A program made the position numbers and the translations under genes. The notes beneath the pieces are model-generated. The model saw only the letters and a program-made list of their open reading frames with translations, had not been told where the DNA came from and ran no database searches. Positions 3,929-17,436 of a stretch of DNA of 64,000 nucleotides are shown one piece after another (the stretch's first letter is position 1; the number at the start of each line of letters is the position of its first letter). Source of the stretch: Candidatus Eiseniibacteriota bacterium. Lineage in GTDB: Bacteria > Eisenbacteria > RBG-16-71-46 > JABDJR01. The stretch lies in contig CAVYIE010000002.1 of NCBI GenBank assembly GCA_963768615.1, positions 133,930 to 197,929 of the forward strand, given 5' to 3'.

Positions 3929-4738
3929 ATGACCGAGATCCTCGAACTCCTCGGAATCGCCGTCATTCCCGCCTTCCTCCTCGTGGACCTGGCCGGGGGC
4001 GCCCGCCCCTATCCCGGAGGGTGGGCCTGGCGGCTTCGCGCCCTGGGCATGACCCTGGTCACCTTCGCCACCGCGGTGGCGGTCACCCTGGGCTGGGCCG
4101 CCGTCTTCGGCGACCGCCACCTCCTCGACCTCAGCGGCCTCGGCACCTGGGCCGGCGCCGGGGTGGGGGTGCTGGTGAGCGAGCTGCTCCAGTACGGGTA
4201 CCACCGCGCCGTCCACCGCTGGGACTTCCTGTGGCGCCGGCTGCACCTGATGCACCACAGCGCCGAGACCCTGGACGCCTTCGGAGCCAACTGGATCCAC
4301 CCCCTGGACAATGCCTTCTTCACCACCTGGGGGAGCCTGACCTTCTTCCCCCTCCTCGGCCTGACCCCGGAGGCGGGAGCGGCGGCCGCGCTCTTCATCA
4401 CCTTCAACGCGCTCTTCCAGCACACCAACAAGCGCACCCCGCACTGGCTGGGCTACCTCATCCAGCGCCCGGAGAGCCACGCCGTCCACCACGGCCGCGG
4501 AATCCACCGCTGGAACTACTCCGACCTGCCGGTCCTGGACATGATCTTCGGCACCTTCCGGAACCCGCGCTCGGTGGAGGGGCTCCGGGCCGGGTTCTAC
4601 GACGGCGCCTCGGACCGGGTCTGGGACATGCTCGTGTGGCGCGACGTCTCGCGGCCCCGGCCGGCCCCGTGCCCCCCGGCCTGGGATTCGTTACAATCCC
4701 GCCGGCCCGGCCGGAGCCGCGCCGGGCTGCGGACCTGA
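3929..4738 (+). CDS. Fatty acid hydroxylase / sterol desaturase superfamily membrane protein
   Basis: Histidine boxes HRAVHRW, HLMHHS, HAVHHG in a hydrophobic protein. Divergently arranged with the TetR gene. Confidence 0.8.
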   Translation: MTEILELLGIAVIPAFLLVDLAGGARPYPGGWAWRLRALGMTLVTFATAVAVTLGWAAVFGDRHLLDLSGLGTWAGAGVGVLVSELLQYGYHRAVHRWDFLWRRLHLMHHSAETLDAFGANWIHPLDNAFFTTWGSLTFFPLLGLTPEAGAAAALFITFNALFQHTNKRTPHWLGYLIQRPESHAVHHGRGIHRWNYSDLPVLDMIFGTFRNPRSVEGLRAGFYDGASDRVWDMLVWRDVSRPRPAPCPPAWDSLQSRRPGRSRAGLRT

Positions 4739-4754: not shown

Positions 4755-7700
4755 ATGAAGATGCGCCACGTGCCCGCCGCCGGCTCGGCCGGCTCCGTCC
4801 TGTTCCTCGTACTGGCCCTGTTCCTGGTGGGCCTCCTTCCCCCCGCCCCCGCGGCGGCGGAGAAACCCCCGGAGCGGATGAAGGCCGGGACCTTCGCCGG
4901 CCTCGCCCTCCGCGGCATCGGCCCCGCCGTGAGCTCGGGGCGGATCGGGGACATCGCGGTGGTGCCCGGCCGGCCCTACGCCTGGTTCGTGGCCGTGGCC
5001 TCGGGGGGGGTGTGGCGCACCGACAACGCCGGCACCACCTGGGAGGCGGTCTTCGACACCGCCGGCTCCTACTCCATCGGCTGCGTGACCGTGGACCCCG
5101 GCAATCCCCTCACGGTGTGGGTGGGGACGGGGGAGAACAACAGCCAGCGGAGCGTGGGCTACGGCGACGGGGTCTACAAGTCGACCGACGGGGGTTCCGG
5201 CTGGACGCGGATGGGGCTCGAGCATTCGGAGCACATCGGCAGGATCGTGGTCGATCCCCGCGACTCGGACGTGGTCTACGTGGCCGCCCAGGGCCCGCTC
5301 TGGTCCGAGGGGGGCGACCGGGGGCTCTACAAGACCGCCGACGGGGGGAAGACCTGGGAACGGATCCTGGACATCGACTCCTGGACCGGGGTGAGCGACC
5401 TCGTCCTGGACCCCCGGAACCCCGACGTGATGTACGCCTCCGCCTACCAGCGCGGGCGCCGCGTGTGGTCCCTGGTGGACGGCGGGCCGGGCTCGGCCAT
5501 CTACAAGACCGTGGACGGGGGGGCGCACTGGGACAAGCTCACCACTGGGCTTCCCCACGCCGACCTGGGGCGGATCGGCCTCGCCGTCTCGCCGGTGGAC
5601 CCGGACGTGGTCTACGCCATCGTGGAGGCCTCGGACAAGAAGGACGCCGGGTTCTACCGGTCCACCGACGCGGGGGGGAACTGGAAGCGGATGAGCGGCT
5701 ACCTCTCCTCCAGCCCCCAGTACTACCAGGAGCTGGTCCCCGATCCCGCCGACCCCGACCGGGTCTACTCCCTGGACACTCATCTCATGGTGACCGAGGA
5801 CGGGGGGGCCACCTTCACCCGGGTCAACGGCCGGTTCAAGCACGTGGACAACCACGCCATGTGGATCGATCCCGCCGACACCGATCACCTGCTGGTGGGC
5901 TGCGACGGCGGGGTCTACGAGACCCGGGACCGCGGGGCGAGCTGGGAGTTCAAGGCCAACCTGCCGGTGACCCAGTTCTACAAGATCGCCGTCGACGACT
6001 CCAAGCCGTTCTACTTCGTCTACGGCGGCACCCAGGACAACAACACCCTGGGCGGCCCGTCGCGGACCGCGACCGTCCACGGCATCGTCAACTCGGACTG
6101 GTTCCGGACCGTGGGCGGGGACGGATTCCAGTCCGCCATCGACCCCGTCGATCCCGACATCGTCTACTCCCAGTGGCAGCATGGCGGGCTCATCCGCTAC
6201 GACCGCAAGAACGGCCAGGAAACCGGGATCAAGCCCGAGGCCGCCCCCGGCGACCCCCCGCTGCGCTGGAACTGGAACGCGCCCCTCATCATCAGCCCCC
6301 ACTCCCACACCCGGCTCTACTTCGGGGCCCAGCGCCTGTTCCGGAGCGACGACCGCGGGGACTCCTGGACCGCGGTGAGCCCGGACCTCACCCGGCAGCT
6401 CGATCGGAACCGGATGAAGGTGATGGGCCGGGTGTGGAGCGTGGACGCGGTGGCCAAGAACGCCTCCACCTCCTTCTACGGCACCCTGGTCGCCCTGGAC
6501 GAATCGCCCCTGGTGGAGGGGCTCCTCTACGTGGGGACCGACGACGGCCTGATCCAGGTCACCGAGGACGGAGGAGCCACCTGGCGAAAGTGCGACCGGT
6601 TCCCGGGGGTGCCCGAGCTGGCCTACGTGTCCCGGGTGACCGCCTCCCGTAACGACGCCAACACCGTCTACGCCGCCTTCGACGCCCACAAGCTGGGCGA
6701 CTTCAAGCCCTACCTGCTGAAGAGCACCGACCGGGGCCGCTCCTGGAAGTCCATCGCCGGAGACCTGCCCGCGCGGGGCACGGTCTACGCGCTGGTCCAG
6801 GACGGCGAGAAGCCGGCCCTGCTCTTCGCCGGGACCGAGTTCGGGGTGTTCTTCACCGTGGACGGCGGCCGGCGCTGGGTGGAGCTGACCGGGGGGATGC
6901 CGACCATCGCGGTGCGGGACCTGGCCATCCAGCGGCGCGAGAACGACCTGGTGGTGGGCACCTTCGGCCGTGGGTTCTACATCCTGGACGACTACACCCC
7001 GCTCCGCGGCGTGGACGACGCCGCCCTGGAGCGGGAGGCCGCCCTCCTGCCGGTGAAGGACGCCCCCATGTACGTGCCCGCCACCCCCTTCGGAGGCGAG
7101 GAGAAGGGGAGCCAGGGGGACGCCTTCTTCACCGCGCCCAACCCGCCCTTCGGCGCCGTGTTCACCTACTACCTCCGGGACGAGATCCAGACCCGGCGGG
7201 AGCAACGGCGGGAGCGGGAGAAGGAGCTGGAGAAGGCGGGGAAGCCGGCCTACTACCCGCCGTGGGATTCCCTGCGGGCCGAGGACCGGGAGGAGGCGCC
7301 GGAGGCGGTGCTCACCGTGACCGACGCCGACGGGAACGTGGTGCGGCGGGTGACCGGGCCGGTCAAGGCCGGCTACCACCGGGTGGCCTGGGACCTGCGC
7401 TATCCGGCCGCCAATCCGGTGAACCTCCATCCCCCGGACAACCCCTGGTACGAGCCCCCCCGGGGCCCCCTGGCCGCCCCGGGCACCTACTCGGTGTCCC
7501 TGGCCCTGCTCCGGGACGGCAAGCCGGAGCCGCTGGGGGAAGCCCGGACCTTCCGGGCGGAACCGGCCGAGGCCTCGACGCTCCCCGCCCCCGACCGCGA
7601 GGCCCTGCTCGCCTTCCAGCGCAAGACGGCCCGGCTGCAGCGGGCGGTGCTGGGTTCGGTGAAGTCCCTGGCCGAGGCCAAGGAGCGGCTGGAGTATCTC

Positions 7701-8069
7701 CGGAAGGCCCTGGAAGAGACCCCCGAGGCCGACCGGGGGCTCATGGACCGGACCCGGGACCTGGAGCGGCGCCTGGCCGATCTCTCCATCCGGTTCAGCG
7801 GGGACCCGACCATCGAGAGCCGCCACGAGCCGGTGCCGCCCTCCGTCACCGACCGGGTGAGCCAAATCGTGGACAGCCAGTGGATGTCCACCTCCGCCGT
7901 CACCGCCACCAGCGAGGCGAACTACGCCGCCGCGGCGGACGCCTTCGGAACCGCCCTGGAGGACCTCCGCACCCTGATCGAAACCGACCTCCGCGCCCTG
8001 GAAGCGGACGCGGAAGCGGCGGGGGCGCCCTGGACCCCGGGCCGGGTCCCGACCTGGAAGCGGGAGTAG
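4755..8069 (+). CDS. Secreted BNR/Asp-box repeat protein, sortilin/Vps10-like (glycosyl-hydrolase-like beta-propellers)
   Basis: Signal peptide. More than 10 S/T-x-D-x-G-x-T/S-W Asp-box repeats (STDGGSGW, TADGGKTW, TVDGGAHW, STDAGGNW...). C-terminal coiled-coil-like tail. Confidence 0.85.
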   Translation: MKMRHVPAAGSAGSVLFLVLALFLVGLLPPAPAAAEKPPERMKAGTFAGLALRGIGPAVSSGRIGDIAVVPGRPYAWFVAVASGGVWRTDNAGTTWEAVFDTAGSYSIGCVTVDPGNPLTVWVGTGENNSQRSVGYGDGVYKSTDGGSGWTRMGLEHSEHIGRIVVDPRDSDVVYVAAQGPLWSEGGDRGLYKTADGGKTWERILDIDSWTGVSDLVLDPRNPDVMYASAYQRGRRVWSLVDGGPGSAIYKTVDGGAHWDKLTTGLPHADLGRIGLAVSPVDPDVVYAIVEASDKKDAGFYRSTDAGGNWKRMSGYLSSSPQYYQELVPDPADPDRVYSLDTHLMVTEDGGATFTRVNGRFKHVDNHAMWIDPADTDHLLVGCDGGVYETRDRGASWEFKANLPVTQFYKIAVDDSKPFYFVYGGTQDNNTLGGPSRTATVHGIVNSDWFRTVGGDGFQSAIDPVDPDIVYSQWQHGGLIRYDRKNGQETGIKPEAAPGDPPLRWNWNAPLIISPHSHTRLYFGAQRLFRSDDRGDSWTAVSPDLTRQLDRNRMKVMGRVWSVDAVAKNASTSFYGTLVALDESPLVEGLLYVGTDDGLIQVTEDGGATWRKCDRFPGVPELAYVSRVTASRNDANTVYAAFDAHKLGDFKPYLLKSTDRGRSWKSIAGDLPARGTVYALVQDGEKPALLFAGTEFGVFFTVDGGRRWVELTGGMPTIAVRDLAIQRRENDLVVGTFGRGFYILDDYTPLRGVDDAALEREAALLPVKDAPMYVPATPFGGEEKGSQGDAFFTAPNPPFGAVFTYYLRDEIQTRREQRREREKELEKAGKPAYYPPWDSLRAEDREEAPEAVLTVTDADGNVVRRVTGPVKAGYHRVAWDLRYPAANPVNLHPPDNPWYEPPRGPLAAPGTYSVSLALLRDGKPEPLGEARTFRAEPAEASTLPAPDREALLAFQRKTARLQRAVLGSVKSLAEAKERLEYLRKALEETPEADRGLMDRTRDLERRLADLSIRFSGDPTIESRHEPVPPSVTDRVSQIVDSQWMSTSAVTATSEANYAAAADAFGTALEDLRTLIETDLRALEADAEAAGAPWTPGRVPTWKRE

Positions 8070-8106
8070 CGGCGGCGCAGGAGACGCCCGACGCTGAGGC
8101 AGGGAA

Positions 8107-8140
8107 GGCCCCGGGGAGCGACCCCCGGGGCCTTCGGGTT
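8107..8140 (+). terminator. Rho-independent terminator-like hairpin after the BNR/Vps10 gene
   Basis: ggccccgggg-agcgac-ccccggggcc perfect 10-bp stem, followed by ttcgggtt. Confidence 0.5.
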
Positions 8141-8151
8141 CCCGCCGGACG

Positions 8152-8286
8152 TCGCCGCCGGAGCCTCGGCTCCGGTCGTCTTTTCCGAAGGCTCCGCCGG
8201 AGATCCTCGGTCAGGAGGTCCACGATCCGTTCGATCTCCGGCAGGGTCAGGGGCCGGAACAGCACCACGTCGTCCACCCGGTTCAC
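8152..8286 (-). pseudogene. clpB-derived remnant A: last ~12 codons of a divergent clpB (stop TAG changed to GAG) fused to a 97-bp internal clpB segment
   Basis: Minus-strand translation [34 protein letters not shown] matches clpB residues near its C-terminus. 8152-8190 resembles the resident clpB terminus (13650-13690). 8190-8286 is identical to 12604-12710. Confidence 0.7.
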
Positions 8287-8622
8287 GAAAGCGGGGATTG
8301 AGGCAGCCGTACAGTTCCTGGCGAACAGCCTATACCACCAGATAGGTCCAGGGGCGCACATGGATTCAAACCCGGAGAATCCATTCACTCCCTACCTTCC
8401 GAACCATCCTCATGAACAGATCCCGAGGACGCGATCGTTCGAGCAGGCCAACCTCCTTCCTCCAGATGCCCGTGCGCGTGTCCTTGACGCACCGAAGGAA
8501 CGGGGGAAGATACGGGAGAGGTAGTCAAGGCGCCTCGTCTGCCAACCCGCCATGGATTGTCGCTTGCACATAGGCCCCGTACCGTTTGAGTCTATTTAGG
8601 TCTGTGTAGACCGAGTCCCTGA

Positions 8623-8985
8623 CTCCATAGTGGACTTCCGCCCACGCTCGTCCTCCAGGCGGGGTCGATCACGTTCGACAGCCCGGTCGGGCGCGTCGGG
8701 TTCATATTCGGCGGCAACACGGACAACAGCGTGCCGTTCGCGACCGTGCTCGGCCCGAGCACGACCGGTAACTTCACTCTGACCAGCGTGGCCAACGGCA
8801 CCCCTGGCGTCGACAATTGGACGTTCTATGGGTTCGAGGATACGGACGGGATCACGAGCATCGAGTTCTCCGCCGAGACGAACAACAACTGGTACTACGG
8901 GATCTACGATTTCATCTACGAGGATCTGCAGGCCGTCTCGGCGGAGCCCACCACCTGGAGCGACGTGAAGGCGCTCTTCGAGTAG
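8623..8985 (+). pseudogene. Startless C-terminal gene remnant (secreted-protein-like), low GC
   Basis: Open frame ...SITFDSPVGRVGFIFGGNTDNSVPFATVLGPSTTGNFTLTSVANGTPGVDNWTFYGFEDTDGITSIEFSAETNNNWYYGIYDFIYEDLQ... ends at 8985. No plausible start: the only in-frame start codon is the GTG at 8731. Stops at 8587 and 8620. Local GC is well below the window average. Confidence 0.35.
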
Positions 8986-9006
8986 GAACGCCGCGGCCCA
9001 TCCGCG

Positions 9007-11643
9007 CTACGGTCCGACCGATCCCGGCGTACCGGCACGCATGCCTCGTAGCCACGCCAGTTCCGCGGCGTAACCTGCGCCGGGATCGCTCCTCGCCCAC
9101 TGCTCGATCCTCGCGATCGCGGTGTCGATCGCGAGCGTCGTCTCCGCGTCGAAGAGCGGGAGCGCGGGGAGCGCTGCGTGGAGCAGCGCGAGCGACTCCT
9201 TCTTTTCGCCCATCGCCATGTGCACGAGGGCGAGGTGGGCCTGCGACAGCTCGCGCACCTCGGCCTCGTGAACGCGCTCACCCTCGTCGTCAACGAGGGA
9301 CTGCAGCACCGCACGGGCCTCGGCATAGCGGCCCAGCGCGTAGAGCGTGATGCCGTAGGTGTCGCGCGCGGCGTCCGTGTCGGGGTGATCCGGGCCGCGC
9401 ACCTGGCGGGTGCGGGCGAGGGCGTCGACGATCAGCGGTTCGGCGTCTTTCGCCTCGCCGTTGCGGGTCATCGCCTTGGCCAGCAGCACCAGGGAACTGA
9501 GCGTTCGCGGGTGGTCCTTGCCGAGCACGCCGGCGCGCAGCTCGTAGGTCTGGCGGTGCAGGACCTCGGCCTCGGCCCACTCGCCGAGGACGCCGTGGAC
9601 CTCGGCCACGTTGTTCATGGAGTTCAGCGTCACCGGGTTCTCGGGGCCGAAGACCACCTTCTTCGCGGCCAGGGCGCGCTGCATGTACTGCTGCGCCTCG
9701 CGCATGCGCCCCTGATTGGCGAGGACGTTGCCCAGGTTGTTGAGGATGTTGAGCGTCTCGGGGGCGTTCTCGCCCACCGTGCGTTCCTTAATGGCGAGGA
9801 CCTCCTTGGCGAGGGCCTCGCACTCGGCGTAGCGCCCCACGCGCTCGTAGATGTTCGCGAGCAGGGTCATCGTGCGGGTGGTGTTCGGGTCCTCCTTGCC
9901 GAGCGTGCGTTCCTGGAAGCTGCGCACATCCAGCAGGAGCGACTCGGCCTCCGCGAAGCGCCCCGCGTCCTCGTAGAACAGTCCGAGGGTCGACTTCCAC
10001 TCGGCCACGTCGCGTGCCTCGGTGGGCGAGGCGTGCGCCTCGTAGCGCAACGCGTGGCGCAGCTCGCGCTCCGCGTCGGCATTGCGGCCCAGACGGAACA
10101 GCGCGATGGCCTCGTCGTGGACGGCCCAGGCGGTCTGGATGTCGTCCTCGCCCTGATGCGCGACGCGCAGCGCCACCTCGCGCTCGAACTGCGGGAGCGC
10201 GGCCTCGTAGGCGCCGGTCGAGAGGTACGTGGACCCCAGCGTCTGGCGGATCGCCGCCTCCACCAGGGGCTTGTCGGCGAAGCGTCCACCCGGGGCCGAC
10301 GACGCGTCCAGGCGCTGCGCCGCCACGTCGAGCACCTCGCGCATGCGCACGTCGATGCCCTTGCCCGCCTCGGTCGACGGCGCCGCCGCGGACAGCAGGT
10401 CCTTGTTGAGGAAGTCGTTGACCGCCTGCGCGATGGCGGCCTGCCGTCGTGCTTCACGCGCCTCGCTGGCGGCCACGTGTTCCGCGCGGCGCGCGCGCAG
10501 CAGGCCCCAAGAACTGGCGGCCACGCCGAGCACCAGGATCACGAAGATCGCGATGAGCGCCCGGAAGGCGCCGCGATGGCGGCGGATCAGCTTGCGCAGC
10601 CGATACCCGGCGGTGGGCGGGCGTGCGGCGACGGGCTCGTCATCGAGGAAGCGCGCGATGTCCATCGCCAGGCCGTTCGCCGTCTCGTAGCGGCGGTTGC
10701 GATCCTTCTCCATCGCCTTGAGCACGACCCAGTCGAGGTCGCCCTGCAGCGACCGGTGCAGGCGCGGTAGCAGCGTGGCGCGCCGGTCGGCGACCTCCTG
10801 CGCCTGCGCACCGAGCGTCGCCAGCTTCTTGCTCGGCGTGAGCGGGTCGTCCTCGCGGATGATGCGGCGCATCTCGTCGAAGCCCGCGCGCCGCAGCGCA
10901 TTCACGTCGAACGGCAGACAGCCGGCGAGCAGTTCGTAGAGCATCACGCCCAGGGAGTAGATGTCGGTGCGCGTGTCCACGTCCTCGACGGTGAGGTCGG
11001 CCTGCTCGGGGCTCATGTATTCGGGCGTGCCCAGCAGCGTGCCGACCATCGTGAACATCGTCTGCTCGGTGAGCCGCGGGCCGGCCGCCTTGGCCACGCC
11101 GAAGTCGATGATCTTGGCGACCGGCTTGCCGTCCACCTCGGTGACGAGGACGTTGCTCGGCTTGAGGTCGCGGTGGATCACGGCCTTCTGGTGCGCATGC
11201 TGCACGCCCTGGCATACGCTGACGAACAGCTCGAGACGCTCGCGTGTGGCGAGGCGATGGCGATCGCAATACTCGGTCAGCGGAAGTCCCGGCACGTACT
11301 CCATCACGAAGTAGGGGCCGCCGTCGGGCGTGGTGCCGGCATCGAGCACCTTGGCGATGCAGGGGTGGCTCATCAGCGCCAGGGCTCGACGCTCCGCCTC
11401 GAACCGCACGATGACGTCGCGCGAGTCCATCCCGCGCTTGATGATCTTGAGGGCGACCGTCCTGCGGATGGGCTCGTCCTGCTCGGCGAGCCACACCTCG
11501 CCCATCCCGCCCTCGCCCAGCATGCGCAGCAACCGGTAAGAGTCGATGGTCCACGCCGCCGGAGCCGGTCCGTCGTACGGCAACGTGGCGTCGGGATCGG
11601 GGGGCCGACCGTCATGAGGCGTGTCATGATCCGCCATCGGCAA
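9007..11643 (-). CDS. Serine/threonine protein kinase with transmembrane segment and C-terminal TPR repeat array
   Basis: Hanks kinase motifs (GEGGMGEVW, VALKII, HRDLKPSN, DFGVAK, GTPEYMSPE). Single TM (LIAIFVILVLGVAASSW). ~450 aa of TPR-like repeats. Confidence 0.9.
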   Translation of the reverse strand: MPMADHDTPHDGRPPDPDATLPYDGPAPAAWTIDSYRLLRMLGEGGMGEVWLAEQDEPIRRTVALKIIKRGMDSRDVIVRFEAERRALALMSHPCIAKVLDAGTTPDGGPYFVMEYVPGLPLTEYCDRHRLATRERLELFVSVCQGVQHAHQKAVIHRDLKPSNVLVTEVDGKPVAKIIDFGVAKAAGPRLTEQTMFTMVGTLLGTPEYMSPEQADLTVEDVDTRTDIYSLGVMLYELLAGCLPFDVNALRRAGFDEMRRIIREDDPLTPSKKLATLGAQAQEVADRRATLLPRLHRSLQGDLDWVVLKAMEKDRNRRYETANGLAMDIARFLDDEPVAARPPTAGYRLRKLIRRHRGAFRALIAIFVILVLGVAASSWGLLRARRAEHVAASEAREARRQAAIAQAVNDFLNKDLLSAAAPSTEAGKGIDVRMREVLDVAAQRLDASSAPGGRFADKPLVEAAIRQTLGSTYLSTGAYEAALPQFEREVALRVAHQGEDDIQTAWAVHDEAIALFRLGRNADAERELRHALRYEAHASPTEARDVAEWKSTLGLFYEDAGRFAEAESLLLDVRSFQERTLGKEDPNTTRTMTLLANIYERVGRYAECEALAKEVLAIKERTVGENAPETLNILNNLGNVLANQGRMREAQQYMQRALAAKKVVFGPENPVTLNSMNNVAEVHGVLGEWAEAEVLHRQTYELRAGVLGKDHPRTLSSLVLLAKAMTRNGEAKDAEPLIVDALARTRQVRGPDHPDTDAARDTYGITLYALGRYAEARAVLQSLVDDEGERVHEAEVRELSQAHLALVHMAMGEKKESLALLHAALPALPLFDAETTLAIDTAIARIEQWARSDPGAGYAAELAWLRGMRAGTPGSVGP

Positions 11644-11686
11644 AGTCTACCGCGACGGGGGGTGATCGCGGAAGGAGATTCGGCCA

Positions 11687-11926
11687 TCACGCCACCTGCA
11701 CCACCAGCTTCCCGAAGTGTGTCGCCGCCTCGAGCGTGTCGTAGGCCCTGCGCACGTCGGTGAAGGGGAAGACCTGGTCGACGACCGGCTTCAGGCCGGT
11801 CTGCGCGACGAAAGCGGCGAACGCGCGGAAATGTTCGGCGCTGCCGACGTAGACCTGGTCGACGTGGAGGCGGTCGGCACTGGCCCGGGCGCGGTCGGGG
11901 GCGGCGCGGTCGCCGGTGAAAAGCAT
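11687..11926 (-). pseudogene. C-terminal ~80-aa fragment of an MDR-family quinone oxidoreductase / Zn-alcohol dehydrogenase
   Basis: MLFTGDRAAPD...VDQVYVGSAEHFRAFAAFVAQTGLKPVVDQVFPFTDVRRAYDTLEAATHFGKLVVQVA is a typical MDR C-terminus. No N-terminal catalytic domain upstream; the rest of the ORF is Gly/Arg junk. Confidence 0.55.
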
Positions 11927-12174
11927 AGGTGATTGTATGAGCCCGTCCCAGGGCGGAAAGTTCGTCCCGGCATCCCGGGCACCCGGCCTTCCCCGGAAAC
12001 CACCTCTCCCCGGCAGGCCAGGGACCGTCCGGGGAGCGTGATGGCCCTGAGCGCGCGCAACCGTCCCCACGACACGGGTCTCTCCCCCGTCCTCGAGTTC
12101 CGCGGAACCGGCCCGGCACGCACCTCCACGACCCGCCGGCCCGGTACTCGAGGATCCGGCACGGGGGACGGGAG

Positions 12175-12384
12175 TCAGTTGGGGAGCACGGCCACCGGCT
12201 CCGGCGGCGCCCGCTCCCCGAACGGGTCGTGTCCGCCGCCTCGGGTGACGTGACGCAGGATCCGGTCCACCACCCGCGGCTCGGTCACCACTGACACCAC
12301 CCGCATCTCCACCCCGCACTCCGGGCACAGCAGCGGGTCCACCTCCAGCACCCGGCGCAACAGCCGCGCCCAACTCCCCGTCCG
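12175..12384 (-). pseudogene. Transposase C-terminal fragment (CxxC zinc-ribbon motif, IS91-family-like)
   Basis: SWARLLRRVLEVDPLLCPECGVEMRVVSVVTEPRVVDRILRHVTRGG resembles the conserved C-terminal motif of IS91-type transposases as I recall it. No catalytic domain upstream. Family assignment is tentative. Confidence 0.4.
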
Positions 12385-12544
12385 TGACCCCGCCCGACCA
12401 CCGTCTCCCCGCGCACCGGGTGCCGGGGCCGGTACACCGCCGGGACGCTCGCCCCGACGCCGCCGAGACCCACAGTACCCACTCAAACCAACCGCACCGG
12501 ACGGGCTCAGCCGCAATCAGATCCAGTCTGCACCGCGGGCAGGC

Positions 12545-12715
12545 CGCCCGGCATCAGCTCCCGGGCCGCCTCGCTCAGCTCCAGGCTCACGCTCCCGTCC
12601 GCGAGGCTCCGCCGGAGATCCTCGGTCAGGAGGTCCACGATCCGTTCGATCTCCGGCAGGGTCAGGGGCCGGAACAGCACCACGTCGTCCACCCGGTTCA
12701 GGAACTCCGGCCGGG
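12545..12715 (-). pseudogene. clpB-derived remnant B: ~170-bp internal segment of a divergent clpB
   Basis: Minus-strand translation [47 protein letters not shown] is colinear with resident ClpB ...[46 protein letters not shown]. ~83-85% nt identity to the resident clpB at 13868-14012. Confidence 0.7.
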
Positions 12716-12735
12716 TGAATCACCCCGTCACCGGC

Positions 12736-13386
12736 TCACTCCGCGGCCGGCGCGTCCTCGTCGAACTTCACGTCCCAGTGGGCCCCGCTACAGAACGGCT
12801 TGTTCGTGCTCTTGCCGCAGCGGCAGAGATCGAAGTGATCCAGGGTGGCACCCTCGAGGAGCTCGACGTCCTCCAGGTCGGCGCCGCCGACGATGGCGTA
12901 GGGGCCGTTGGGCCAGAGGGTGACCCTGGGTTCGCCGCCGCGGTCGCGATGCTCGATGCCGTCGATGGAGTAGCTGAGGGCGCCGGAGGGGCACGTGGAG
13001 ATGGCGCGGACGATCTCGTCGCGGGTGGCGCCGTCGGGATCGATCCAGGGCTCGGTGCCGAGGCGGAAGACCGACTTCAGGGTGTCGGTGCACCGGGCCG
13101 AGTGCGCGCAAAGGCCGCGGTTGTCGTGGATGGTGATCTCCTTGCCGGCGTACTCGTCGCGCCGGTCGGGGACGCGGGCGGGGTCCTTGGCGCTGGTGAA
13201 CCCGTTCTTCTTGTGGGTCCCGTCGCAGAAGGGTTTGTTGGAGGAGCCGCCGCAACGGCAGAGGGCGGCGCGGCCGCCCCGGACCTCGAAGACCTTGCCG
13301 TCCGTGGGGCGGACGATGGCGGTGACGTTGGAGACGAGGTAGGGGCCGTTCTCGGTGGGGGTGATCTTGGGGCGGTCGGCGGGCAT
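12736..13386 (-). CDS. CDGSH-type iron-sulfur domain protein (two CDGSH motifs)
   Basis: CRCGGSSNKPFCDGTHKK and CRCGKSTNKPFCSGAHW motifs. Confidence 0.85.
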   Translation of the reverse strand: MPADRPKITPTENGPYLVSNVTAIVRPTDGKVFEVRGGRAALCRCGGSSNKPFCDGTHKKNGFTSAKDPARVPDRRDEYAGKEITIHDNRGLCAHSARCTDTLKSVFRLGTEPWIDPDGATRDEIVRAISTCPSGALSYSIDGIEHRDRGGEPRVTLWPNGPYAIVGGADLEDVELLEGATLDHFDLCRCGKSTNKPFCSGAHWDVKFDEDAPAAE

Positions 13387-13651
13387 GGGTCCTCCGTGGG
13401 GACGAGGGTCTGCGTTGGGGGGCGGTCGGGGCGTCCGGGGGGGCCGTCGGGGGGACAGTAGCAGGCTGGGAGGCCGGAGTCCATGTGACGGGGGTGGCGT
13501 CGGACCCGGGTCGACCGGGGTTCACCCGAGGGGCGGCCGCGACGGGGATCAGCCGGGTAGCCGTGCACCCGGGTCCACATCTGCAGCCACGTTCACGCCG
13601 CCACGGAAACCGATTCGGTGAACCGCCAGCGCCGCCGTTCCGGCCCGGGAC

Positions 13652-16303
<2,652 letters not shown>

Positions 16304-16345
16304 TAAGTTATCCTTTCAATTGATCCGGGCGAGGTGCCTTCCGAG

Positions 16346-16374
16346 AGTATAGCTCCGGGCCCCCGGGGGTCCAA
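16346..16374 (-). promoter_or_regulatory. sigma70-like promoter for clpB (TTGGAC-N17-TATACT on the minus strand)
   Basis: Read on the minus strand: cttgga cccccgggggcccggagc tatact, then the leader with an AAAGGA RBS before the clpB ATG. No CIRCE or HAIR inverted repeat recognised. Confidence 0.4.
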
Positions 16375-16415
16375 GCCGGCCCCGGCCGCGGCTCCGGAAT
16401 CGGGCAACCGCCGGG

Positions 16416-16443
16416 TTGACAGCAAGTTCTACATCTGTAGAAT
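16416..16443 (+). promoter_or_regulatory. Near-consensus sigma70 promoter (TTGACA-N16-TAGAAT) with overlapping perfect palindrome TTCTACA-TC-TGTAGAA (candidate operator), upstream of the ABC transporter operon
   Basis: ttgaca at 16416-16421, tagaat at 16438-16443. The 16-bp palindrome 16427-16442 overlaps the -10. Confidence 0.45.
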
Positions 16444-16506
16444 TACCTGGCAATCACAACCGATCCCTATACAATCTCCACTCGCCCCGGCTTCCCAGGA
16501 GGGACC

Positions 16507-17436
16507 GTGATAGAAGTCGATGCGCTCCACAAGCAGTACGGCGAGCTGACCGCAGTGGACGAGGTGAGCTTCACGGCCGAGGGGGGAGCCATCTTCGGGC
16601 TCCTGGGCCCCAACGGAGCCGGCAAGACCACCACCATCTCCTGCATCTCCGGCCTCCTCAAACCCACCTCGGGCCGGGTGCGGATCCTCGGGCACGACGT
16701 GGTCACCGACGGCATCCGGGCCAAGAAGGCCCTGGGGGTGGTCCCCCAGGAGATCGCCCTCTACGAGGAGGTCTCGGCGGTGGAGAACCTCCGCTACTGG
16801 GGCGGGGCCTACGGCCTCGGCGGCGCCCACCTCAAGCGGCGCATCTCCGAGGTGCTGGACCTGACCGGGCTCCTGGACCGGGCCAGGGAACCGGTCAAGC
16901 GCTACAGCGGGGGGATGAAGCGGCGGCTCAACTTCGCCTGCGGCATCGTCCACGAACCCCAGGTGCTGCTCCTGGACGAACCGACGGTGGGCGTGGATCC
17001 GCAGAGCCGGGTCCGGTTGCTGGAGCTGGTGCGGGAGCAGGCCGCGGCCGGCACCTGCGTGCTCTACACCACCCACTACATGGAAGAGGCGGAACATCTC
17101 TGCGACCGGCTGGCCATCATCGATCACGGCCGGCTCATCGCCCGGGGAACCCTCCCCGAGCTGCGGGCCAGGACCGGCCAGCGGGACGTGGTCCGGCTCA
17201 CCGGAGCGTTCCCGGCCGGGCGTACCGAGGAACTCGTGAACGGCCTGGAGCACGCCGAGGTGGTCCAGGCCGAGCCGGGCCAGATCACGGTGTCCATGGA
17301 GGGAGGCTCCCGCCGGCTGCCGGAGCTGTTCGGAGTGCTGACCGAGGCCGGAGCGGAGATCCGGGAGACGACCCTCACCCAGCCCAGCCTGGAGAGCCTG
17401 TTCATCCAGCTCACCGGCAAGGAACTCCGCGAGTGA
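16507..17436 (+). CDS. ABC transporter ATP-binding protein (ABC-2/exporter type)
   Basis: Walker A GPNGAGKTT, signature YSGGMKRRL, Walker B LLLDEPTVGVD. Confidence 0.9.
   Translation: MIEVDALHKQYGELTAVDEVSFTAEGGAIFGLLGPNGAGKTTTISCISGLLKPTSGRVRILGHDVVTDGIRAKKALGVVPQEIALYEEVSAVENLRYWGGAYGLGGAHLKRRISEVLDLTGLLDRAREPVKRYSGGMKRRLNFACGIVHEPQVLLLDEPTVGVDPQSRVRLLELVREQAAAGTCVLYTTHYMEEAEHLCDRLAIIDHGRLIARGTLPELRARTGQRDVVRLTGAFPAGRTEELVNGLEHAEVVQAEPGQITVSMEGGSRRLPELFGVLTEAGAEIRETTLTQPSLESLFIQLTGKELRE

Follow-up and report, generated by a model that had tools for sequence, protein, structure and literature searches.

How two near-identical pieces of a divergent clpB came to bracket a small patch of unrelated genes and gene fragments is the question raised by a locus just downstream of the clpB gene of a Candidatus Eiseniibacteriota bacterium. 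We examined it in a window of 64,000 nt (the whole stretch of DNA analysed, from contig CAVYIE010000002.1), in which the original prediction had seen the scar of mobile or recombined DNA involving the 3' segment of a second clpB allele. This part of the prediction is supported by the clpB repeats and by an IS91-family end lying between them. The 4.4-kb patch downstream of clpB most plausibly represents what decay has left of an IS91-family rolling-circle insertion sequence (IS) and neighbouring DNA. With no more than moderate confidence, we take 8290-12548 to be dead mobile DNA around this IS, embedded in what remains of the 3' end of a clpB allele that is older or foreign, called clpB' hereafter. 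The features of the locus are listed in Table 1.

Table 1. Features at and around the clpB/Vps10 interval, in window coordinates
Position	Strand	Feature	Basis or remark
4755-8069	+	Vps10/sortilin-like BNR protein gene	Pfam Sortilin-Vps10, BNR and FlgD_ig; right-hand anchor
8104-8135		GC-rich hairpin, Vps10-like stop to clpB' 3' terminus	Inverted repeat, self-match
8152-8198	-	clpB' 3' terminus	Last ~12 codons and a few nt, mutated stop; out of frame with copy A
8189-8289	-	clpB' internal fragment, copy A	Gene positions ~2287-2387; 100/101 identical to 12604-12704
8290-8622		Low-GC (58-62%) non-coding stretch	Composition profile
8623-8985	+	5'-truncated gene, C-terminal ~110-120 codons of a ~200-aa protein	Homology
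9007-11643	-	Ser/Thr kinase, intact, predicted TM and TPR repeats	Likely start ATG at 11637
11687-11920	-	MDR/quinone oxidoreductase, last ~78 codons	Cut at the IS end
11921-12174	-	IS91-family non-coding region, putative oriIS side	254 nt; terminal motif ATACAATCACCTATGCTT at 11938->11921
12175-12480	-	C-terminal ~100 codons of an IS91-family Y2 (HUH) transposase	5' ~80% and terIS missing
12481-12548		Stretch between transposase stub and copy B	68 nt; no clpB, IS-locus or other homology found
12549-12722	-	clpB' internal fragment, copy B	Gene positions ~2271-2442; starts 14-19 nt past the CDGSH stop
12736-13386	-	CDGSH/Fer4_19 iron-sulfur protein gene	Pfam zf-CDGSH x2 and Fer4_19
13652-16303	-	Intact resident clpB	883 aa, full ClpB domain set; left-hand anchor

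The longest exact match in the window self-comparison is a direct repeat of 97 nt (8189-8285 and 12604-12700), and realignment thus confirmed the identical pair that had been claimed. With one mismatch (8286 C vs 12701 G) the repeat reaches 101 nt (8189-8289 and 12604-12704). By our own estimate, a 97-mer would recur by chance in 64 kb with an expectation of ~1e-49, effectively zero. Translated on the minus strand, both copies give the ClpB D2-small region: copy B was matched by Pfam PF10431 (ClpB_D2-small) at positions 1-37 and the ORF holding copy A by TIGR03346 at positions 747-787, in line with the predicted ClpB C-terminal-domain sequence. The predicted origin from an allele other than the resident one was likewise borne out, with 88 of 101 nt (87%) identical between copy A and resident clpB and 142 of 166 (85.5%) between copy B and the same gene (13862-14027). 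Overall, clpB' and the intact clpB (13652-16303) share ~86% identity. The differences from the resident gene fall on the three codon positions as 8/4/12, a third-position bias like that of orthologue pairs, and 55 codons can be read without a stop; clpB' diverged while it was a working gene. The two repeats are copies of one internal stretch of a single clpB' allele (gene positions ~2287-2387 of 2652) and not the duplicated protein-coding 3' end that had been proposed; copy B exceeds copy A in extent on both sides. A single decayed second clpB paralogue was ruled out as the source, since the two copies cover overlapping gene positions. No metagenome contig in the scan matched a 43-nt repeat core exactly. 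The repeats probably lack any function of their own and could at most permit RecA-dependent loss of the 4415-bp block.

Copy A is continuous with the clpB' 3' terminus apart from a 241-nt deletion. Positions 8158-8198 are identical to 13645-13685 at 35 of 41 nt (85%), the stop TAG has become GAG (8165-8167), and the encoded peptide AEPSEKTTGA is the C-terminus of a relative (P0152); the junction of copy A with a 3' terminus carrying a mutated stop, as originally described, is therefore sound. The fusion corresponds to a frameshifting deletion at a 10-nt microhomology, AGGCTCCGCC (8189-8198), with register offsets across it of 5728 vs 5487. The terminus lies 95 nt from the Vps10-like stop. In the relative L164, where the site is empty, clpB and the Vps10-like gene are directly convergent and the whole clpB ends 78 nt from its neighbour. 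The arrangement in L164 suggests that the clpB' 3' end of copy A is a vestige left in situ.

Further into the patch, the transposase stub and the 254 nt downstream of it probably represent the oriIS-side end of an IS91-family element, whose terminus abuts the truncated oxidoreductase gene. A zinc-ribbon transposase tail had been placed at 12175-12384; its transposase nature stood but its extent did not, as homology spans 12468 down to 12178, and the family is probably that of the IS91/ISCR rolling-circle elements. The stub matches the NCBIfam ISCR clade Ia profile at positions 414-495 of 509 (E=1.3e-8, far below the family cut-off) and was without a Pfam match in the profile search. PF04986 (Y2_Tnp) is present in 6 of 26 fragment homologues of the stub, and its full-length relatives, 445-557 aa long and 68-76% identical in the tail, carry both Zn_Tnp_IS91 (PF14319) and Y2_Tnp. 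By tblastn, residues 60-159 of P0124 match 12468-12202 at 70%. DNA identity of 80-86% to three related loci (L083, L084 and L089) continues beyond the tnpA stop. A terminal motif, ATACAA[T/C]-N3-CTAT-NCNT (ATACAAT here; ATACAA invariant), is found 236 nt past this stop and at 184-300 nt in at least 20 other copies, whose flanks diverge thereafter; L100 and L102 are identical as far as CTATGCGT and different beyond. These comparisons point to the motif as the element boundary downstream of tnpA, the putative oriIS end. Here the last base of the motif is 11921 and the oxidoreductase frame opens at 11920, a base-exact abutment. At the boundary the copies read GCGT, CCGT, GCCT, GCTT and similar, and the target tetranucleotides of the IS91 family, CTTG, GTTC and GTCC (PMC13181058), were not seen beside the terminus.

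Members of the IS91 family have distinct oriIS and terIS ends, make no target duplication and, at a frequency of 1-14%, mobilise DNA next to their terIS side (PMC13181058). In the present element, terIS is absent along with most of tnpA and all upstream element sequence, leaving a remnant. With the transposase reduced to a stub and terIS gone, activity of the IS at this site is at most putative. The 76 related IS loci yielded no terIS motif and no match to 12481-12548 or 8290-9010, and no conserved subterminal or consensus hairpin emerged in the oriIS region among the copies compared. Likewise, no clpB fragments were found beside other copies of the IS, and no further copy was found within the window.

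The kinase gene matches Pfam Pkinase and TPR_12/TPR_10, and 95-98% of its 876/878 aa is covered by homologues that are 859-878 aa long and 69-72% identical, in agreement with the view that it is intact. One protein (P0001) is 100% identical to it at 876 aa; the next relatives stand at 72, 71 and 69%, and two of these are named Gemmatimonadota or Ca. Eisenbacteria. An oxidoreductase gene upstream or the 200-aa gene downstream was absent around the 72% and 71% homologues. Since these homologues lack the same flanking genes, we only infer that 8623-11920 was contiguous in a donor. The kinase could be the sole gene in the block that is still expressed; the promoter scan returned 0 sites for an outward sigma-70 promoter toward it. 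The remaining content between the repeats had been called fragmentary, which the truncations of the oxidoreductase gene, the 8623-8985 ORF and the transposase gene bear out. The oxidoreductase tail matches ADH_zinc_N_2 at positions 87-134 of 134 and TIGR02824 at positions 283-324 of 325. It had been drawn at 11687-11926; the remnant is real, but its proper start is 11920 and the last 6 nt are the IS end. In a phmmer search against representatives, residues 8-117 of the 8623-8985 ORF align to ~85-195 of 197-218-aa proteins. The low-GC stretch beside this ORF (8290-8622) gave nothing in plasmids, Rfam, the tRNA search or IS91-like loci.

Both anchors of the interval have close counterparts in relatives. 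Resident ClpB is 89-91% identical in amino acids to 883-aa relatives, with conserved upstream synteny, and the Vps10-like gene is 77-78% identical (DNA, ~3.2 kb) to orthologues in L088, L163 and L164. Apart from the empty site of L164, the interval between clpB and the Vps10-like gene is occupied by different genes in other relatives, kinases included, and no two of the five genomes compared are alike there, suggesting that this interval is a site of repeated gene gain and loss in the lineage. The CDGSH gene appears to be lineage-specific cargo of the variable site: its protein has a best genome-collection match of 64%, clpB was beside CDGSH in 0 of 80 loci in the genome-collection scan, and the gene is absent from all four relatives examined (L087, L088, L163 and L164). 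With CDGSH absent from all four, the Vps10-like gene was not seen abutting a CDGSH-clpB pair, as had been expected of relatives.

The likeliest history would comprise an IS91/ISCR-style capture, re-integration by a single crossover via the clpB' fragment, and then deletions, in an order of events that we infer. Recombination between related strains would have left a ~390-nt clpB' 3' remnant beside the Vps10-like gene. Aberrant (one-ended) rolling-circle transposition may have linked an IS91-type element, on its terIS side, to a clpB' fragment, and the oriIS side would have been linked to a segment made of the oxidoreductase 3' part, the kinase gene and the 3' part of the 200-aa gene. A circular form of ~4.4 kb could have integrated into the chromosomal remnant through one homologous crossover, which would have duplicated the shared clpB' stretch, as proposed for ISCR1 between duplicated 3'-CS segments. 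A model of circle formation and homologous recombination was reportedly put forward for ISCR1 by Toleman et al. in 2006. Later deletions would have removed terIS and ~80% of tnpA, as well as 241 nt of copy A. The near-coincident 5' ends of the copies in the clpB sense (~2280 for copy A vs ~2265-2271 for copy B) are not predicted by the circle model. No circle, donor genome or intermediate state was found in the relatives and metagenome contigs searched.

On the minus strand, the order is clpB' copy B, tnpA stub, oriIS end, oxidoreductase 3' part, kinase, other fragments and clpB' copy A. This is an ISCR-type arrangement, with a duplicated host segment on both sides, the IS fused by its terIS side to one of them, and variable genes on the oriIS side. 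ISCR1 is located within the 3'-CS of class 1 integrons and has variable captured genes on its oriIS side (PMC6218425). Its complex class 1 integrons (3'-CS1, ISCR1, captured genes, 3'-CS2) share with our block an IS91-related element that has lost terIS and is fused on that side to a host segment, a run of unrelated captured genes from the oriIS end, and a second direct copy of the host segment closing the block. The oriIS regions are also similar in length, with 232 bp after the transposase gene of ISCR1 (PMC6218425) vs 254 nt past the stop here. In contrast, the duplicated segment here is a 101-170-nt fragment of a clpB pseudogene and not an integron 3'-CS, only ~100 codons of the transposase are left and there is no integron, the cargo is a Ser/Thr kinase and gene fragments rather than resistance genes, the host is an uncultured bacterium and not a gammaproteobacterium, and the terminal motif is unrelated in sequence.

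The one-ended transposition of IS91, IS801 and IS1294 offers a second comparison. As in these elements, full-length relatives of the stub have a Y2 HUH transposase with a zinc-binding N-terminal domain, a single defined end lies downstream of tnpA, host DNA is adjacent on the terIS side, and inverted repeats and target duplication are not visible, only one end being comparable here. However, the terminal sequence and the bordering NCNT differ from the canonical CTTG/GTTC/GTCC (PMC13181058). Moreover, terIS is absent here and only half of the element can be compared. Helitrons are eukaryotic rolling-circle transposons that capture gene fragments. They too leave a mosaic of unrelated 3' gene fragments next to a rolling-circle transposon end, but their transposase lineage and host domain are different, and the block has only 2-3 fragments, whose truncations can be explained by simple deletion.

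Four other explanations of the block were weighed. In the first, which we consider unlikely, everything happened locally: an IS91-like element inserted in the in-situ clpB' remnant at ~2442/2443 would have undergone one-ended transposition, a read-through copy with adjacent clpB' landing ~4 kb away in a resident oxidoreductase gene, and the original IS copy would have been lost through the deletion with the 241-nt scar, followed by loss of the oxidoreductase 5' part and most of tnpA. The 3'-proximal end of copy B (2442, at 12549), where the IS-side sequence starts, indeed falls within the interval deleted from copy A (2388-2628), and the oriIS end abuts the oxidoreductase break. The copying of terIS-side adjacent DNA at 1-14% frequency by IS91-family elements (PMC13181058) and the unrelated cargo genes, kinases included, at the site in relatives are also compatible with such a course. 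It would nevertheless require at least four separate deletions and extra trimming of copy A, as copy B is ~10-15 nt longer at the 5' side, and it leaves the 5'-truncated 200-aa gene and the low-GC stretch unexplained; in addition, the 68 nt at 12481-12548 matched no terIS-side sequence.

It is quite unlikely that the block consists of recombination scars only, arising from at least two imports from related strains by homology-anchored illegitimate recombination, or from tandem duplication and decay, with the IS91 stub as a passenger. A site that is different in all five genomes compared, a clpB' whose divergence from the resident gene is on a par with that of sister-lineage orthologues, and junctions of the microhomology-deletion type would all suit this explanation. 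On the other hand, copies identical at 100 of 101 positions and overlapping in gene coordinates need one recent duplication event, and an IS terminus placed exactly at the oxidoreductase break indicates a genuine IS insertion or joint and not a random fragment.

An assembly artefact, in which a 4.4-kb loop belonging to another genome or to a separate circle was mis-threaded via the short clpB-like sequence, is very unlikely. The window comes from a metagenome-derived contig, the nearest kinase relatives are labelled with other phyla, the low-GC stretch is unlike the host in composition, and the true paths could in principle be x1-R-y2 and a 4415-bp circle. Against this, the kinase and clpB are recorded on one 800,390-bp contig, which indirectly favours a long-read assembly, and Flye-style names in sister assemblies suggest long reads, which make a 97-nt repeat irrelevant. 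The copies also have distinct and explicable flanks (a microhomology deletion, an IS junction, a place just after the CDGSH stop), and neither the 8286/12701 mismatch nor their unequal extents are expected from a graph loop.

Genomic islands in the 3' ends of tRNA, tmRNA or protein genes resemble the block in having gene-derived direct repeats around foreign DNA, but here no integrase was found, the repeat is internal to a pseudogene, its copies are unequal and the target gene is not reconstituted, the intact clpB lying 1 kb away behind the CDGSH gene. An integrase-mediated island aimed at the 3' part of clpB and bounded by the 97-nt repeats in the role of attL and attR, as the original prediction implied, would fit gene-fragment repeats bracketing foreign-looking DNA but is highly unlikely and was set aside because neither an integrase nor any att logic could be made out: no integrase or recombinase was recognised among the ORFs of 60 aa or more at 8100-13600 (the main ones drew no such match in Pfam or NCBIfam), the repeat lies in a pseudogene allele rather than in functional clpB and restores no reading frame, the sole mobility gene is for a rolling-circle transposase, a type of enzyme that creates no att sites (PMC13181058), and no islands with an integrase were found at clpB in the four relatives examined.

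Read as the remains of an IS91-family element and its neighbouring DNA, the block is a legible but ordinary genomic scar that calls for no new biological principle. A bolder proposal, unlikely in our judgement, is that an undescribed IS91 clade with the terminal motif ATACAATCCCCTATGCGT, common across metagenomes from soil and sediment, acts as an ISCR-like gene-capture system in uncultured Acidobacteriota and Gemmatimonadota, the block being a re-integrated 4.4-kb circle, still excisable via its 101-nt repeats, with a TPR Ser/Thr kinase carried between phyla. The locus is a worked example of how rolling-circle ISs and homologous recombination can build small gene-fragment mosaics in uncultured soil bacteria, with an architecture known from ISCR1 of clinical integrons. 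It also defines an end motif for an environmental IS91 clade, which could help to annotate elements of this kind, and the DNA they have captured, in metagenomes, and it singles out the clpB/Vps10 interval as a place of gene exchange in the lineage. Hairpins similar to the one at 8104-8135 are present in the 78-nt clpB/Vps10 spacer of L164.

The original prediction of direct repeats of a divergent clpB allele around a mosaic was correct and well described. The repeat is exact over 97 nt (8189-8285 and 12604-12700) and reaches 101 nt when one mismatch is allowed; its copies start 4415 nt apart. A repeat of 97 nt within 64 kb is not explicable by chance. Both copies encode the beginning of the ClpB D2-small domain, copy A being 87% (88/101) and copy B 85.5% (142/166) identical to the intact resident clpB. 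Differences between clpB and this second, broken allele (clpB') fall 8/4/12 at codon positions 1/2/3 over 55 stop-free codons, as they do between orthologues, and clpB' therefore diverged as a working gene and was broken later. Sister-lineage clpB genes differ from the resident clpB to the same degree as clpB' does. The two copies are not halves of a single decayed gene, since they overlap in clpB gene coordinates.

Features of the clpB' repeats and of the segment they enclose
Feature	Position	Strand	Description
Copy A	8189-8289	minus	clpB gene positions about 2287-2387
Stretch between copy A and 8623	8290-8622		58-62% GC
Gene fragment	8623-8985		C-terminal half, family of ~200-aa proteins
Ser/Thr kinase	9007-11643	minus	Pkinase + TPR
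MDR oxidoreductase fragment	11687-11920		last ~78 codons
Copy B	12549-12722	minus	clpB gene positions about 2271-2442
Resident clpB	13652-16303	minus	intact

The kinase is the one complete gene in the enclosed segment. The databases contain an identical 876-aa protein, and alignments with homologues (859-878 aa, 69-72% identity) span 95-98% of it. The stretch following copy A had no match in plasmids, Rfam or IS91-like loci, nor did 12481-12548 match related IS loci. The ORF at 12175-12516 matches the NCBIfam model 'ISCR element clade Ia transposase' (positions 414-495 of 509). Relatives of this tail contain Pfam Y2_Tnp, full-length metagenome relatives (445-557 aa) combine it with the IS91 zinc-binding domain, and a transposase fragment closely related to it could be aligned over 12468 to 12202. 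Three independent contigs shared 80-86% DNA similarity with the window, extending beyond the transposase stop codon. The otherwise isolated motif ATACAA[T/C]-N3-CTAT-NCNT was found in at least 20 copies, 184-300 nt past the transposase stop, with different flanks beyond it. Two metagenome loci with one and the same element, L100 and L102, agree completely as far as CTATGCGT and are unrelated thereafter, which places the element boundary there. The transposase tail thus represents one end of an element of the IS91 family. In the window, the motif is found 236 nt past the stop and its last base (11921) adjoins the start of the oxidoreductase frame (11920); the break in the oxidoreductase gene therefore coincides with an IS91-type end and was probably made by one.

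IS91-family elements have two different ends, terIS and, downstream of tnpA, oriIS; they insert without target duplication and frequently mobilise adjacent DNA (PMC13181058). In ISCR1 a 232-bp oriIS region is followed by variable captured genes (PMC6218425). The window element is in keeping with known family features, although neither the canonical target tetranucleotides nor a conserved subterminal hairpin was matched and terIS is deleted. The 74 metagenome loci L089-L162, together with L083-L086, represent a clade of the IS91 family that is apparently uncatalogued and occurs commonly in soil and sediment metagenomes from JGI and ENA, with many copies cut down, like that in the window, to a C-terminal transposase stub and the oriIS-side end. 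One contig (L085) holds two tail remnants 2.3 kb apart (10281-10482 and 12566-12740), adjoining a contractile-injection-system-like cluster (phage sheath, Pvc16, gp19, AAA ATPase). L121 has a TPR Ser/Thr kinase (106-2544; 35% identity to that of the window) some 1.5 kb away from an IS tail of this clade (4001-4165), which may be coincidence because kinases of this type are very numerous there.

Read on the minus strand, the block runs from copy B through a transposase stub that lost its terIS side, the oriIS end and a foreign segment to copy A. It parallels ISCR1 between duplicated 3'-CS in complex class 1 integrons, a known kind of structure. The unusualness first claimed for it is unsupported; this is one more example, and what it modestly adds is the terminal motif of an IS91 clade from the environment. 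Rolling-circle elements form circles and take up neighbouring DNA. We infer, with a slight preference, that a circle carrying a clpB' stretch entered the chromosome by a single crossover and that deletions followed. Such a crossover would be the simplest single event duplicating a host stretch around an insert. The circle would have measured 4415 bp, and later deletions would have removed tnpA and terIS and left a 241-nt gap in copy A. The data themselves establish what the IS is, where it ends, the truncated genes, the empty site and the duplication. A local hop seems rather unlikely, in which the IS, lying in the clpB' remnant at position ~2442, copied itself and the adjoining clpB' stretch into a nearby oxidoreductase gene and its original copy was lost by deletion. 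In favour of this variant, copy B's IS-side end lies within the segment missing from copy A, but more deletions and some trimming would be required. Recombination scars only, a marginally weaker proposal, are also doubtful. An assembly artefact is improbable given the 800-kb source contig and junctions that are each explicable. The idea of a decayed mobile element scar proves correct in outline, with an IS91-family end and truncated genes, but not its att-like reading: an integrase-type island is very improbable, as no integrase was recognised (ORFs in 8100-13600; Pfam/NCBIfam on main ORFs), the repeated stretch lies inside a pseudogene, and mobility is represented solely by the gene for a rolling-circle transposase.

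Judged by its ClpB, the host falls among Thermoanaerobaculia-like Acidobacteriota. Four relatives (ClpB identity 89-91%) share upstream genes (ABC transporter, SpoIIE-type phosphatase) and differ downstream. In L164, clpB converges directly on the Vps10-like gene at a distance of 78 nt; in L088 and L163, the two are separated by an Rce1-like gene and an unrelated kinase; L087 lacks Vps10 and carries other genes. In the window, the interval from clpB to Vps10-like/RlmL (8069-13632) holds the CDGSH gene and the mosaic. The comparison makes this interval a variable site and a hot spot of gene exchange, whose empty state is seen in L164. Across the five related genomes, the cargo differs and the anchors are conserved. 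The double-CDGSH + Fer4_19 gene (12736-13386), found in none of the four relatives, has its best match (64%) in a Vicinamibacterales MAG from a species-level genome collection. Without a close relative there and absent from the four nearest genomes, it is further acquired cargo. Recombination with a related strain would have brought in either the intact clpB and CDGSH gene or, conversely, the clpB'-Vps10 side.

Copy A runs into the final ~12 codons of a clpB (8158-8198 versus 13645-13685, 85%), with the stop changed from TAG to GAG (8165-8167). At the joint, 241 nt have been deleted across a 10-nt microhomology, AGGCTCCGCC, which shifts the frame; the register offsets on either side are 5728 and 5487. 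From this pseudo-stop to the Vps10-like stop there are 95 nt with a hairpin between, the same arrangement as in L164, and the copy A 3' terminus therefore resembles a vestige that stayed where it was. In both clpB (13645-13662) and clpB' (8157-8176), the final codons make up a GC-rich hairpin that spans the stop; on the plus strand a T-rich run follows, and the score is terminator-like. At copy A, this could act on transcription leaving the Vps10-like gene. Upstream of clpB (16304-16510), GC falls to ~60%, with palindromic AT-rich stretches such as CTACAGATGTAG (16430-16441) and a promoter-like pair, CTTGGA...GCTATACT; it is possibly a heat-shock regulatory region.
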